The notes beneath the pieces are model-generated. The model did not search any database and was not told the origin of the DNA. It saw nothing but the letters and a program-made list of their open reading frames with translations. Position numbers and translations under genes: made by a program. A stretch of 64,000 bases of DNA from Longimicrobiales bacterium (GTDB lineage Bacteria; Gemmatimonadota; Gemmatimonadetes; Longimicrobiales; Gaopeijiaceae), in contig CBDFIQ010000002.1 of the NCBI GenBank assembly GCA_965248195.1, positions 704,001 through 768,000 on the forward strand, read 5' to 3'. Shown here piece after piece: positions 18,268-23,159 of the stretch; within the stretch, counting starts at the first letter, position 1, and the number at the start of each line of letters is the position of its first letter.

Positions 18268-18987
18268 ATGCTCAGTCAGATGTTCGAGGGTACGGGCCTC
18301 TCCGAAGTCCTCGCCCAAAACCCGCCACTCGCTTTCGTGACCCTGTTCGGTGCAGGCTTGGTGACGAGCCTGACACCCTGCGTTTATCCGATGATCCCGA
18401 TCACCGCTTCCGTGCTTGCGGGATCTGCGAAACAGGGTGCCCCCCGGTCGCGGGTGGTCGGCCTGACGTTCACGTACGCCCTCGGGCTGGCGTTACTCTA
18501 TGCGATGCTCGGACTGGTGGCGGGCCTGACCGGGAGCCTATTCGGCACGGTCAGCGCGAGCCCATGGACCCGATTGGCGATCGGAAATCTGCTCTTGGTG
18601 TTCGGGCTGGCGATGTTCGACGTCATTCCGGTGCGCGTGCCGCAACGCCTCCTGCAGTGGGCCGGGACCGGCCAGGGTGGGTCCTACCCGTCGGTGTTCG
18701 CTCTCGGAGCCGCGTCCGGCGTCGTCGCGGCCCCTTGTGGCGCTCCGGCGTTCGCCGTGGTACTTACATGGGTGGCGGCCACCCAGGCGGGCGCGATGGG
18801 CTTCCTCTACTTGTTCGTCTTCTCCTTCGGAATGACCGCGTTATTGGTTGCTGTCGGCCTCTTTTCCGGGTTCGGGGCGGCGCTGCCGGCTGCGGGCCCA
18901 TGGATGGTGTGGATCAAAAAGGGGGCCGCAGTGATTATGCTAGTGATGGCTCAATATTACTTCGTCCAGGTGGGGATGGTATTGTGA
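18268..18987 (+). CDS. ccdA: CcdA / DsbD-beta transmembrane electron transporter
   Basis: SLTPCVYPMIP and AAPCGAP redox Cys motifs; about six TM helices. Confidence 0.9.
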   Translation: MLSQMFEGTGLSEVLAQNPPLAFVTLFGAGLVTSLTPCVYPMIPITASVLAGSAKQGAPRSRVVGLTFTYALGLALLYAMLGLVAGLTGSLFGTVSASPWTRLAIGNLLLVFGLAMFDVIPVRVPQRLLQWAGTGQGGSYPSVFALGAASGVVAAPCGAPAFAVVLTWVAATQAGAMGFLYLFVFSFGMTALLVAVGLFSGFGAALPAAGPWMVWIKKGAAVIMLVMAQYYFVQVGMVL

Positions 18988-19574
18988 AAACTGACGACCG
19001 ATTCCGTAACTGGCGCCCCGGGCAGGGCGTCGCGCATCTCGTGAGCGCGGGCGTACTGTTGTTGGGTGCTTACGCTCCCCTCACCGCCACTCTCTCTTTG
19101 GTGGGTGTACTCTCTCCCGCCGCCGCGGTTGCGCAGGAGCGCGGCGAACTTGGGATCGCGTTGGGCGAGCGGCCCGAACTCGTGGAAATGGAGGACTTGG
19201 AGGGCAACAAGATCAGCCTCGCGCAGTATGTCGAAGGGCGCCCGGCGCTCATCGAATTCTGGGCGCGCTGGTGCGAGCTCTGTGAGGCTCTGTACCCACA
19301 GATGGTCGACGTCCACGCCCGTTACGGAGATAGGGTAGGGTTCGTCGCGGTCGCCGTTGCGGTCGCCCAATCCCAGCGCTCGGTCCGGAGGCACCTCGAA
19401 GACGAGCCCGTCGATTTCCCGGTGCTGTGGGACGAGGGTGGTAGGGCCGTGCGTGCCTTCTTGGCTCCCGGGACGTCCTACATCGTGGTCCTGGATGAGG
19501 AGGGGATCGTCGTGTACACGGGGTCCGGAGCCGGACAAGACATCGAGGCGGCGGTCCGGACGGCACTCGACTGA
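18984..19574 (+). CDS. TlpA-like exported thioredoxin / disulfide reductase
   Basis: GTG overlaps ccdA stop (GTGA); hydrophobic N-terminus; IEFWARWCELC CxxC motif. Confidence 0.87.
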   Translation: MKTDDRFRNWRPGQGVAHLVSAGVLLLGAYAPLTATLSLVGVLSPAAAVAQERGELGIALGERPELVEMEDLEGNKISLAQYVEGRPALIEFWARWCELCEALYPQMVDVHARYGDRVGFVAVAVAVAQSQRSVRRHLEDEPVDFPVLWDEGGRAVRAFLAPGTSYIVVLDEEGIVVYTGSGAGQDIEAAVRTALD

Positions 19575-19623: not shown

Positions 19624-19666
19624 CCAAGAAGAGGGCCCGGCCATGATTGCCGGGCCCTCTTCTTGG
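19624..19666. terminator. 18-bp perfect inverted repeat, probable bidirectional terminator
   Basis: CCAAGAAGAGGGCCCGGC-catgatt-GCCGGGCCCTCTTCTTGG between convergent stops 19574 and 19707. Confidence 0.8.
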
Positions 19667-19706: not shown

Positions 19707-20282
19707 CTATTCTTCAGCGACCTCGGCCACGGCCGCGGCCAACTCCTCGTACGCCGTCGGATCGATTTCACGGAACTGAGACGTGGCCCACGAAACCCGC
19801 CCTTCCGGATCGACAACGACCACCGCCCGACTCTGGGGCATTCCGTTGCCCATTCGACCGACGCCGAAGGCGTCCGCGGCGTCACCCTCCACGTCACTCC
19901 CGAACAGGACCGGGAAATCCGCGTCTGCCGCCCATGACGCCAAAGCCTCCGGAGGGTCGTTGCTTATTGCGAAGATGGTTACGCCTCGTCCGCCTCTGAA
20001 TACGCTTGCGTACTGATCACGGTACGCTTCCATTTGAATTGTTCAGCCAGGCGTTCGCGCTCTGAAGAAGAACGCCAATACCACCACCTCTCCCCGTAAA
20101 TCCGACAAGCGGACCGGATCCTGGAGGACTCCGTAACGTGTAGCGCCCGTGACGGCGAAGTCAGGGGCCATCTCTCCGACGGCGATCATGCCGGATGCGC
20201 CGGCCTGGGCAGCGGCCGGCTGAACGAAAACAGCCAAACCCAGGGCCAGGGCGAACACGAATGCCATCGTGGATGGCCGCAT
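19707..20282 (-). CDS. Exported peroxiredoxin (AhpC/TSA, BCP-like), probable selenoprotein with in-frame UGA at 20045-20043
   Basis: ORFs 20043..20465 and 19707..20033 are in the same frame and join as VGEMAPDF...VVLAFFFRARTPG-U-TIQMEAYRDQY; AAGGAGG before ATG 20282; signal peptide AAA-Q; 191 aa. Confidence 0.85.
20008..20027 (-). promoter_or_regulatory. Candidate bacterial SECIS hairpin
   Basis: mRNA GCGUAC-CGUGAUCA-GUACGC begins 15 nt 3' of the UGA; GU at loop positions 2-3. Confidence 0.65.
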
Positions 20283-20295
20283 TCGAATCCTCCTT

Positions 20296-20361
20296 TCTTT
20301 GTAAGACGGAAACCTGTCTTTAGTGAGACGGAACCGTGTCTTTGTAAGACAGAAACCCGCG
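20296..20361. repeat. Three imperfect 21-23 bp tandem repeats upstream of the peroxiredoxin RBS
   Basis: TCTTTGTAAGACGGAAACCTG / TCTTTAGTGAGACGGAACCGTG / TCTTTGTAAGACAGAAACCCGCG. Confidence 0.75.
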
Positions 20362-20481
20362 TCCGGGCGACAGTATACACCCTGAAATCGTGATGCGCAC
20401 GATCCAGCGCAGAGATCCCCCAATGGTGTGCGGAATGGCCGCCGCCGATGCTCGGCCCGAAGCACCTGTCTCTCTCGCTGC

Positions 20482-20925
20482 TCATTCCGCGAGCGGGGAG
20501 ATGTGATATTGGACGACCTTCCACGTCCCCTCGTCCAGCACCCGCGTATCCGAGTATCGCCAGGTGCCCGAAATCAATGCCCCTCCGGGCATCGTTACGG
20601 AGCCCTGCAGAAGCGCGCCGGACACGGCGGTGTTACCGTAGACCCTCACGTTCAGTTCATTCATGACGACGTTCGTTCGGAGACCTGTGAGGTACGCGGC
20701 CTGAAGGGCCAGCGCACTGATCCCGTCGATCATGTTGGATCCGTTGACGAAGAACCCACGAACGTCGTCGTGGAAAAAGCTGACGAAGTTGGCGGCGTCG
20801 CCACTCACCAAGGCCGCCAGAGTCTCCGAGACGTCGGCCCGCACATCGGTCTCCTGGGCACGCGCGGAGCCCGCAACCAGTGAAAACGTCGAGCAGACGA
20901 CGAATATGATGCACCGAGATCTCAC
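20482..20925 (-). CDS. Exported NTF2-like (DUF4440/SnoaL) protein
   Basis: Signal peptide ARA-Q; VRVYGNTAV and WKVVQYHIS motifs. Confidence 0.8.
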   Translation of the reverse strand: MRSRCIIFVVCSTFSLVAGSARAQETDVRADVSETLAALVSGDAANFVSFFHDDVRGFFVNGSNMIDGISALALQAAYLTGLRTNVVMNELNVRVYGNTAVSGALLQGSVTMPGGALISGTWRYSDTRVLDEGTWKVVQYHISPLAE

Positions 20926-20944
20926 GTGATCACTCCCTTTCCTA

Positions 20945-21004
20945 TCTTTGGATCTTCCTTCGAATCTCTCATGGTCTTTGGCTCTTCCTTCGAATCTCTC
21001 ATGG
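20945..21004. repeat. 30-bp tandem duplication (one mismatch)
   Basis: TCTTTGG(A/C)TCTTCCTTCGAATCTCTCATGG x2. Confidence 0.9.
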
Positions 21005-21038
21005 AGTTTTCTTCAGCGTCTTCGACCACAGGGGCGCC

Positions 21039-23159
21039 GTGATGTTCCGTCCGGCGTGGACTCATCCGAAGGCCCACTGGGTCTCCCTGAGCGTCGCGGC
21101 CGTAGGACTCGGGGCCGTAGGGGTTTGGGTCGATCTTTCCCCGAGGGTGGAAAGCGACTTTTTCTTCTCGGAGGACGACCCCCAGCTTCAGGCGTCTCTC
21201 GAGTTGGACCGACGGTACCCGGGACGGGCGCAGGTAGTCGTGCGGGCGGAGGACATGGCGGGGGATCCCGAGGCGTACCGCGAGTGGATAGGTGAGCTCA
21301 CGGAGGCCTTTTCGGAGGTGGAGGATGTGACGGGCGTCCGCTCGATCACCACCGATGATGCTGCGCCGAGTCCCCTGTTCAGCCGAATCCTTCTGACGCC
21401 GGACGAGGCGGCCACGAACCTCATTCTCAGTGTGGACGCGCCCGATCCCGAACTTCTTCTCCCTCGATTGGAGGCCGTGGTCGAGCGACTCCGTGCGCCC
21501 GGACTGGATGTGGTCATGTCCGGAGTGCCGGTTATCGTCGAGCAGATTCGACGAAATCTGTTTCGCGATCTCGTGGTCTTCAGCCTTTCCTCGCTTCTCC
21601 TGTACGGTCTGCTCGCGGCGCTGATCTATAGAAACGCAGGAATCGTCGTCGGTGCACTGACGACCTGCGTATCCGCATGCGCGGCCACCCTGCTTCTCAC
21701 CCGTTCCATGGGCATCCAGATCGGCCTGCTCACGGCCAACCTCATCACGATCGTCTTCGTGCTGACGCTCTCGCACATCGTCTTTCTGACCGCCAACTGG
21801 CGGCGGGCCGCGACTCTTGGGCTGGCGCCGGATCAGCGGGTGGCCCGGGCCGTGTCGTTGACCCTCGAAGCCTCCTTCTGGTCCATGGCCACGACGCTCA
21901 TGGGATTCCTGAGCCTGTTGGTGGCCTCGGCTCGGCCCTTGAGGGAGTTGGGTATTGCCGGTGCGATCGGTGCGGCGACCGCTCTTGCCGTCGCCTATAC
22001 GATTTTCCCCAGCTTTTTGGGCCGCGGCGCAGAGGGTACCGGAACTGCGGAGTGGTGGTCCGCCGGGATCTCCCGGATCTCGGTCCGGCCGGTGGGCCCA
22101 TTGGCCGTCATCGCTTTTGTGGTCCTCGGGCTGGGGTTTGGTCTTCCGAAGCTCGACACCGACCCGGGTCTCCTCACGTACTTCGCTGAGGATTCCGAGC
22201 TTCGGCGTGGGCTCGAGCAGGTCGATCGAGACGGCGGGAGCAGCACGCTAAACATCGCGATCCACGACGCATCAGGCGCACGCCTCGATGAAAGCGAGGT
22301 CTACGAACGCATGTGGCGTTTTCAGGAGGCGCTGGAGGCGGACTCGGTGGTGGGCGCGGTTCTATCACCTGCGGTGCTGCTGGGGCATGCTCGGACGTTG
22401 CCCCTGGCCGGGTTCTTGAGCCTGAGCACGCTCCTGGATATTGGCGAAACGCCGCAGTTGGATCGGATCACCCTGAGCTTTGTCACGCTGGAAAGGGACG
22501 AGGGGCTCTTTTTCCTCCGAATGAAGGAATCGGTTCAGGAGCCCTCTCGAGAAGCGGTCATGGATCGACTCGAAGGGTACGCGCGCGACGCTGGCCTCGA
22601 CCCCGTACAAATGGGAGGCTTATACGACCTCCAGGCGCAGCTCGGTCGGCTGATCGCCTCGAGCCTCCGGATCGGCCTTGGGGGGCTACTACTCCTGTTC
22701 GTGGGCGTCGCCGTGGTTGTTTCCCGTTCCGCGAGCGTGGCGGCGCTCATGGTGGCGTGTCTCGGCGGGATCCCGCTCGTCGTCCTGGGTACCTTCGGCC
22801 ATCTGGGCGTGGCGGTGGACATCATCACCTCACCGGCGGCGAACGTCGCTTTGGCCATGGGAGTCGACTCGATGATTCACCTGGTGGTGCGGGTCCGGCA
22901 CCTTGGCAGGGGCGGGCTGGATCCTCTGGAGAGCTGGTCCCAGGCTCGAGCCCAGATCATGGGGCCAGTGCTGGCTGCTACGCTCCTTATATGCGTCGGA
23001 TTCGGGATCTTCGGGTTGTCGACGTTTCCACCCACCCGCCGCTTCGGGTTCGCGGTGATCCTTGGCACGATGACGGCTGCCACCATGGCGCTGGTGACGT
23101 TGCCGCTCGCGGTCGAAGCCTTGAGGCGGAGGCCGGCGGAGGAGTCTCAGCCGGCCTGA
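21039..23159 (+). CDS. MMPL/RND family transporter
   Basis: Two repeats of TM + extracytoplasmic loop + five TMs; MGVDSMIH, TTLMGFLSL, PTRRFG motifs. Confidence 0.88.
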   Translation: MMFRPAWTHPKAHWVSLSVAAVGLGAVGVWVDLSPRVESDFFFSEDDPQLQASLELDRRYPGRAQVVVRAEDMAGDPEAYREWIGELTEAFSEVEDVTGVRSITTDDAAPSPLFSRILLTPDEAATNLILSVDAPDPELLLPRLEAVVERLRAPGLDVVMSGVPVIVEQIRRNLFRDLVVFSLSSLLLYGLLAALIYRNAGIVVGALTTCVSACAATLLLTRSMGIQIGLLTANLITIVFVLTLSHIVFLTANWRRAATLGLAPDQRVARAVSLTLEASFWSMATTLMGFLSLLVASARPLRELGIAGAIGAATALAVAYTIFPSFLGRGAEGTGTAEWWSAGISRISVRPVGPLAVIAFVVLGLGFGLPKLDTDPGLLTYFAEDSELRRGLEQVDRDGGSSTLNIAIHDASGARLDESEVYERMWRFQEALEADSVVGAVLSPAVLLGHARTLPLAGFLSLSTLLDIGETPQLDRITLSFVTLERDEGLFFLRMKESVQEPSREAVMDRLEGYARDAGLDPVQMGGLYDLQAQLGRLIASSLRIGLGGLLLLFVGVAVVVSRSASVAALMVACLGGIPLVVLGTFGHLGVAVDIITSPAANVALAMGVDSMIHLVVRVRHLGRGGLDPLESWSQARAQIMGPVLAATLLICVGFGIFGLSTFPPTRRFGFAVILGTMTAATMALVTLPLAVEALRRRPAEESQPA

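Follow-up and report, generated by a model that had tools for sequence, protein, structure and literature searches.

PrxU of Eubacterium acidaminophilum is reportedly a verified selenocysteine (Sec)-containing peroxiredoxin, represented by the NCBIfam model NF040737. Sec-peroxiredoxins with a TxxU motif (PF00578/COG1225) are catalogued in Table 1 of PMC13188914; Sec-peroxiredoxin genes number 43 in the Sargasso Sea data (PMC1088965) and 91, from 78 organisms, in PMC5029168. The gene described here lies in a 64,000-nucleotide stretch of the genome of a Longimicrobiales bacterium (the window). It shares with PrxU and the TxxU Sec-peroxiredoxins the peroxiredoxin fold, the TxxU motif and a predicted Sec at the peroxidatic site, and because that family is already catalogued the novelty assigned to the gene by an initial annotation was too high. 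The protein differs from PrxU in being BCP/PrxQ-like rather than AhpC-like (33.8 bits against the curated NF040737 cut-off of 270), and from the TxxU Sec-peroxiredoxins in having a predicted signal peptide, no resolving Cys, and Phe at the position of the motif Pro.

Among Cys enzymes, Caulobacter crescentus PprX is described in PMC3322552 as an exported PrxQ-type peroxiredoxin that TlpA and ScsB reduce; the present protein, exported by prediction, likewise has a TlpA-like thioredoxin and a membrane protein of the DsbD family as its likely electron path. Compared by description, PprX contains two Cys and retains all of PxxxTxxC, whereas the present protein has Sec, no second Cys and no Pro; the PprX system uses ScsB, whereas here the transporter is of the CcdA type and comprises the transmembrane domain only. 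The best sequence and structure matches are Mycobacterium BcpB (5epf), AhpE (1xvw) and Sulfolobus Bcp (2ywn, 3hjp), at E 5e-11 and TM 0.75-0.80, but identity is only 26-31%, and these entries use Cys and, in the examples aligned, have Pro. As in Bcp/PrxQ proteins, Gly precedes the peroxidatic residue, and an AISND segment resembles the G(V/I)SxD of PrxQ given in PMC5302317. A more distant parallel is mammalian GPX6, for which PMC10958145 describes repeated Sec-to-Cys exchange with shared changes near the catalytic site; that case concerns another enzyme family and domain of life, whereas here a single residue of the canonical motif explains the pattern and the independent events are many more.

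A single reading frame interrupted by one UGA

On the minus strand the frame from ATG 20282 to TAG 19709-19707 has a TGA at 20045-20043 (codon 80 of 191) as its sole interruption, and translation through it gives the context FFFRARTPG-U-TIQMEAYRDQY. The ORF list cuts the gene in two, with one piece ending at 20043 and the other starting at 20033, while the Pfam AhpC-TSA domain crosses the UGA (residues 35-165, 85 bits). The initial annotation had described one continuous frame split by the ORF track, a joined protein of 191 residues without Cys, and a strong ribosome-binding site; the two pieces, the read-through translation with zero Cys, and the AAGGAGG at 20295-20289 bear it out on each of these points. 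Its expectation that automated pipelines would call fragments was likewise correct, as protein collections do store Sec genes of this family in pieces that end at the UGA or begin four codons past it.

A scan with the sigma-70 consensus found no promoter upstream of the peroxiredoxin gene, and the candidate listed in Table 1 is proposed from its boxes and their counterparts in relatives. In the 5′ leader directly before the ribosome-binding site (20296-20357) a 19-nt unit occurs three times, each copy containing a GTCT-N5-AGAC-like inverted motif; among the close relatives shown, most carry a single copy and L060 carries two. In two RNA libraries, contigs of relatives span the gene and are uninformative on transcription, strand or level.

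Table 1. Features of the peroxiredoxin locus, in window coordinates; rows are those of the wider alignment (91 Sec, 45 Cys).
Feature	Position	Strand	Basis
Exported BCP/PrxQ-like peroxiredoxin gene (export predicted), 191 aa, Sec at residue 80	19707..20282	-	Translation; Pfam AhpC-TSA; AlphaFold2 model
In-frame UGA, U80, peroxidatic residue	20043..20045	-	Aligned with peroxidatic Cys of solved Bcp proteins
SECIS hairpin (stem of 6 bp; loop of 8 nt with G as second base)	20008..20027	-	Folding, published constraints, conservation
Thr77 of TxxU motif	20052..20054	-	Thr or Ser in 90/91 Sec rows
Phe73, replacing Pro of PxxxTxxC	20064..20066	-	Alignment to solved Bcp proteins; position -7
Arg152, conserved catalytic Arg of peroxiredoxins	19827..19829	-	Aligns with Bcp Arg; Arg in 136/136 rows
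Predicted Sec-pathway signal peptide, residues 1-25, putative cleavage after AAA	20208..20282	-	Sequence; hydrophobicity screen
Ribosome-binding site AAGGAGG	20289..20295	-	6 nt upstream of ATG; AAGGAG core in 13 close relatives shown
Candidate promoter: TGCGCA, 16 nt, TATACT with TG-rich bases before it	20372..20399	-	Similar boxes in 13 close relatives shown
CcdA-like (DsbD transmembrane domain) electron transporter, Cys38 and Cys157	18268..18987	+	Pfam DsbD_TM 142.6 bits
TlpA/ResA-like thioredoxin, WCELC, N-terminal hydrophobic stretch	18984..19574	+	Pfam AhpC-TSA/Redoxin; NCBIfam ResA below cut-off
Long inverted repeat between convergent genes	19624..19666	.	21-nt arms, 95% complementary

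Fold, catalytic residues and predicted export

An AlphaFold2 model built from 29 sequences (pLDDT 89) has Bcp and AhpE peroxiredoxins as its best structural matches, and in an alignment to the solved Bcp proteins U80 coincides with their peroxidatic Cys and Arg152 with their catalytic Arg. The fold, Thr/Ser at -3, the Sec site and the distal Arg of a canonical peroxiredoxin are all present, and Pro at -7 is absent. The PxxxTPGCT match proposed in the initial annotation stands for the catalytic position and fails at -7, where the residue is Phe73. No NCBIfam peroxiredoxin model reaches its cut-off, the BCP/PrxQ equivalogs NF006960 (the best) and NF053650 scoring 50.8 against 140 and 31.4 against 260. 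The protein derives from peroxiredoxins and probably acts as one, yet it is a divergent form, distinct from PrxU and without the motif Pro.

The signal peptide of the initial annotation is seen as a hydrophobic N-terminus, with a hydrophobic 9-mer at the same position in 135 of 136 homologues, a judgement made by sequence and a hydrophobicity screen only. A resolving Cys is absent from this protein, and a near-terminal Cys occurs in only 5/91 Sec rows. Some Sec forms (L023, L024, L027, L035, L220) have an acidic C-terminal tail that ends in Cys, often as DC or GC, and the same tail is found in named loci such as L053, L054, L059 and L062-L064. Judging from sequence, the terminal Cys of these tailed forms is a possible tethered resolving residue, one that is missing from the window's gene.

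A hairpin conserved with the UGA

As the initial annotation had described, a 6-bp stem begins 15 nt 3′ of the UGA (GCGUAC/GUACGC, loop CGUGAUCA, 20027-20008), and the loop carries G at its second position. The bacterial SECIS model in PMC13188914 has a loop of 3-9 nt, a stem of 4-16 bp, G in the first two loop positions, a distance of 16-37 nt from the UGA, and an MFE at or below -7.5. The hairpin lies within all of these published constraints (8 nt, 6 bp, G at 2, loop beginning 21 nt after the UGA, -8.5 kcal/mol). Compared with shuffled sequences its folding gave a z of -2.77 over 31 nt and -0.20 over 56 nt from the UGA, and folding energy was dropped as proof of a SECIS element since it is not significant over 56 or 76 nt. 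Among 30 sequences no stem pair varies on both sides.

Because the energy of the hairpin alone is weak evidence, support for the element rests on conservation, that is, on selection at silent sites. Over the 20-nt hairpin the mean number of mismatches is 0.08 in the 91 Sec rows versus about 6 in the 45 Cys rows. The Arg codon at +8 is CGT in 88/91 Sec rows versus 3/37 Cys rows that have Arg, and CGT makes up 14% of Arg codons in the window's genome; the Asp codon at +9 is GAT in 88/91 Sec versus 11/38 Cys rows, and the Ala codon at +6 is GCG in 90/90 versus 8/16. Hairpin conservation, which the initial annotation had proposed to examine, is therefore confined to the TGA forms. That one and the same element occurs in all Sec forms suggests that the Sec state arose once.

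Selenium machinery and alternation of TGA with Cys codons

The genome of the window (4.86 Mb, 92% complete) contains selA, selB and selD above curated cut-offs in a profile search, together with a tRNA-Sec (selC) with a UCA anticodon, so that all four genes for which the initial annotation had suggested a search are present. That annotation had added that a genome without Sec machinery whose homologues all had TGC/TGT would speak for a nonsense mutation or read error; the machinery is in place and the TGA is conserved. In a same-family sample of 61 genomes TGA is present in 40/40 matches at E 1e-47 or better and in 0/18 weak matches, and it occupies the same column in 30/30 family loci fetched. 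Phylum-wide, 252 of 301 genomes have a homologue match at E 1e-30, a tally that takes in the unpublished genomes G234, G211 and G115, which enter into no other result given here.

The TGA form tracks selA. Among 80 of the 106 listed lower-scoring genomes, selA was present in 46/46 with the TGA form, TGA was found in the match of 0/26 without selA, and the other 8 had selA and only a distant, TGA-free match; the 26 selA-negative genomes fall in 7 genera and so represent fewer than 26 independent cases. Of four other Cys-form genomes, three have no selA and one (G087) does. A wider alignment of 130 loci yielded 91 Sec and 45 Cys rows, 12 of the latter distant paralogues, and has TGC/TGT at the UGA column in 45 of its 136 rows, so that TGA and Cys codons alternate at this column as the initial annotation had anticipated. 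The 80 best GTDB loci are titled Gemmatimonadota or subgroups (75), Palauibacter (1), Gammaproteobacteria (3) and uncultured bacterium (1); their 80/80 occurrence of TGA is biased because the search patterns included FFFR and the SECIS-coded peptide, and these named loci were used for taxon names and neighbourhood only. The three titled Gammaproteobacteria (L098, L103, L104) have the gene with TGA and an identical hairpin, and are mislabelled bins or cases of transfer. In three loci, L181 (G281), L190 (G256) and L197 (G140), a Sec and a Cys copy lie in tandem, each with Pro, and the pair may provide a backup when selenium is low.

Two readings would remove selenium from the account, and we give each a negligible probability. 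The TGA could be a real stop, in a pseudogene, a nonsense allele or a read error, or a boundary between two small proteins; gene callers do split the gene, and 56 of the 120 listed database matches start at the Met four codons after the UGA, but one TGA column runs through many genera, both halves are conserved, and TGC stands there where selA is missing. Reinitiation at this Met (Met84) was rejected, since the residue is also kept in Cys forms, which indicates that it is structural. Alternatively, the UGA could be read as Trp or Cys through a variant code or suppressor tRNA, as the Trp in one and Leu in two of the 120 listed database proteins at the UGA column might suggest; those three are rare entries, best read as errors or code-4 calls. 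Against such decoding, the only UCA-anticodon tRNA at default stringency is the long tRNA-Sec, and TGA terminates ordinary genes in the same genome, ccdA among them. The reading of the UGA as Sec made in the initial annotation is supported by the machinery, the TGA/Cys alternation, the tracking of selA, and the constraints and conservation of the hairpin, and on this sequence evidence Sec is almost certainly inserted in what would be a real selenoprotein gene.

The motif proline and its association with selenium

The peroxiredoxin Pro has been termed absolutely conserved (PMC4749874), the motif was found in 99.3% of 38,739 sequences (PMC5302317), and PxxxTxxU is described as highly conserved in Sec forms (PMC13188914). 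In the present family the residue at -7 is Phe in 55, Tyr in 24, Ile in 3, Val in 1 and Pro in 8 of the 91 Sec rows (non-Pro in 83/91), and Pro in 45/45 Cys rows. The motif pattern is matched by 62 of the 120 listed database proteins, comprising 58 with Cys and Pro, one with Cys and Phe, and three in which Leu or Trp occupies the Sec position and -7 is Phe. The sole Cys protein with Phe, P0155, is a singleton, and is the one Cys exception in 104.

Phylogenies were computed with the Sec/Cys, -7 and SECIS-coded columns masked. A first tree, made by quick search under a mixture model, comprised 146 rows; on it the Cys state amounts to 14 changes, 4 of them forced by supported branches, and 4 independent pairs give p 0.125. 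A second tree covered 83 rows and 148 columns, the rows being chosen by hand and supplemented with the 14 that thinning at 72% identity left of 59 new Cys proteins, and used a careful search under LG+G4, with a bootstrap that was not fully settled. In it Cys with Pro amounts to 18 changes, at least 9 of them forced by supported branches, and the 10 independent Sec/Cys pairs include 8 that differ at -7 the same way and 0 that differ the opposite way (p 0.008). A single clade of all Sec rows is rejected (p-AU 4e-34). The Cys+Pro rows P0002, P0157 and P0158 are nested in a clade (100/99) whose Sec rows all have Phe, and a Cys+Pro row is the sister of a Sec+Tyr row with support of 100/94 (L132). 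The simplest reading is a repeated return to Cys together with a return to Pro. In peroxiredoxins Pro shields the catalytic thiolate and shapes the preceding loop, and a selenolate, already ionised, may not need it.

Neighbourhood and proposed electron supply

Downstream of the peroxiredoxin gene and convergent with it is a ccdA-tlpA pair, which the initial annotation had overlooked and in which tlpA probably starts at a GTG that overlaps the ccdA stop; the inverted repeat between the convergent genes is a probable two-way terminator. Among Sec loci with at least 1.25 kb downstream, tlpA adjoins the gene in 66/75 named, 20/27 family and 20/54 more distant loci, and ccdA in 66/75, 19/27 and 19/54, respectively, with the convergent arrangement in most Longimicrobiales-type loci. 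Neither gene is beside any of the 29 close Cys loci, counting all flank lengths (flanks of 1.3-2 kb). The distant Cys paralogue has a co-directional tlpA in 9/12 loci and ccdA in 7/12, and these loci are a second arrangement that ties the ccdA-tlpA module to the peroxiredoxin family. In Caulobacter ScsB reduces TlpA, and TlpA in turn reduces the periplasmic peroxiredoxin PprX, according to PMC3322552. By analogy, we hold with moderate confidence that TlpA and CcdA would be the reductant of the Sec-peroxiredoxin. Upstream, the window encodes a SnoaL-like exported protein and an MMPL transporter (20482-23159), a pair that accompanies the peroxiredoxin gene in only 12 of 116 loci, those of the closest relatives.

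Proposed mechanism and alternative explanations

We consider it likely that the locus as a whole, TlpA/CcdA and Pro steps included, is explained by a single-Sec exported peroxiredoxin of the BCP/PrxQ type. SelB and Sec-tRNA would bind the hairpin 15 nt past the UGA and direct Sec to residue 80, and the signal peptide would lead to export of the protein to the periplasm. There the selenolate, held by Thr77 and Arg152 as the fold and residues suggest, would attack H2O2 or an organic peroxide to form a selenenic acid. With no resolving Cys in the protein, the neighbouring TlpA (WCELC) may resolve this intermediate via a mixed selenenyl-sulfide, and CcdA may re-reduce TlpA with electrons from cytoplasmic thioredoxin, steps that are modelled on the gene neighbourhood and on the Caulobacter ScsB-TlpA-PprX pathway. 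Selenium would free the motif Pro, such that Phe or Tyr at -7 is tolerated or favored together with Sec; lineages that return to Cys, mostly without selA, carry Pro, a pattern for which this step could account. Taken separately, the assignment as an exported single-Sec peroxiredoxin serving as a periplasmic peroxidase is quite probable from sequence.

The absence of Pro, together with an Arg-rich loop (RxRTxG), could instead mean that a true selenoprotein has a function other than that of a general peroxidase. Possible roles are the reduction of peroxynitrite, of lipid hydroperoxides or of oxidised proteins in the periplasm, and thiol-disulfide exchange as in Caulobacter PrxL. The conservation of Pro and of the motif in the sources quoted above would fit such a change of function, as would the family-specific invariant residues R20, G22 and R47, which lie outside the peroxiredoxin motif (alignment A1), and the scores below cut-off with every NCBIfam peroxiredoxin model. 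However, Thr/Ser, Arg and the fold are retained, and Cys orthologues with the full PxxxTxxC branch among the Sec forms in the phylogeny, a pattern that points to a common function; we regard a non-peroxidase as unlikely. It is also conceivable, though in our view less likely than not, that both Sec and the peroxidase function hold and that the association of Pro with the Cys state reflects history rather than epistasis. Recombination with Cys+Pro paralogues or replacement by them could produce the pattern, as could repeated loss of an ancestral Pro by drift in Sec lineages. The tandem Sec and Cys copies of G281, G256 and G140, both with Pro, are compatible with these routes, as are the eight Sec forms that keep Pro, the two base changes that separate Phe or Tyr from Pro, and the tendency of short alignments to misplace rows. 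Yet it is on trees with the relevant columns masked that Cys+Pro rows appear within a Sec+Phe clade and beside a Sec+Tyr row, and either direction of change leaves non-Pro almost only with Sec. We lean towards a functional coupling of Pro and Sec. To the stronger statement we incline only slightly: that selenium rewrites the peroxiredoxin rule, Sec making the 'invariant' Pro dispensable and an aromatic residue preferred, and each Gemmatimonadota fallback to Cys having to regain Pro through two base changes.

If this is true, the family offers a natural experiment, replicated at least nine times, on the residues that catalysis by sulfur requires and that selenium can dispense with; reversion from Sec to Cys, described as rare in bacteria, would then be common in this enzyme, while a single 20-nt SECIS element stays unchanged across the phylum. 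How an enzyme has to adapt on exchanging selenium for sulfur, and what the peroxiredoxin Pro does, become testable questions. A 2026 review documents bacterial Sec-to-Cys changes mainly for FdhA and SelD, and the peroxiredoxin family appears to add many cases. The results also suggest that peroxides are countered outside the cytoplasm by a selenium-dependent system drawing on CcdA and TlpA, and correct the annotation of a gene that occurs in most genomes of a widespread phylum and is stored as two fragments. A literature search, with most subscription journals outside its scope, returned no paper on a Gemmatimonadota Sec-peroxiredoxin or on loss of Pro with Sec, and 'Gemmatimonad' is absent from the main text of PMC13188914, PMC5029168, PMC12013277 and PMC13326102. 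The genome table of BSepDB, the part of that resource consulted, lists Gemmatimonadota, and BSepDB may thus already hold these genes.

Further likely selenoprotein genes in the genome

SelD of the window's genome has its own in-frame TGA, and seven further likely selenoprotein genes belong to known families: two FdhA, two N-terminally anchored UxxC peroxiredoxin-like proteins, an OsmC-like protein (UxxT), an ArsM-like methyltransferase (UxxG) and a DUF3179 protein (UxxC). These eight genes outside the window (G000, C1:691320, C2:2783465, C2:1603136, C2:2899956, C2:481813, C1:8018, C2:2501274 and C2:3336645; loci L018, L251, L252, L254, L255, L247, L248 and L249) each have the TGA inside the matched domain. 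Scanning the whole genome for UGA codons by codon score and hairpin gave 240 candidates, 53 of them listed, and since the scan missed both the peroxiredoxin gene and SelD the list of selenoproteins is a lower bound. Of 10 scan candidates checked, L250, L253 and L256 were dropped, as no domain spans their UGA. The tRNA-Sec gene has a partial duplicate (L005, G000 C2:1579976-1580081), identical in its 3′ part and 4.4 kb from the intact gene, as is typical of an integration site.
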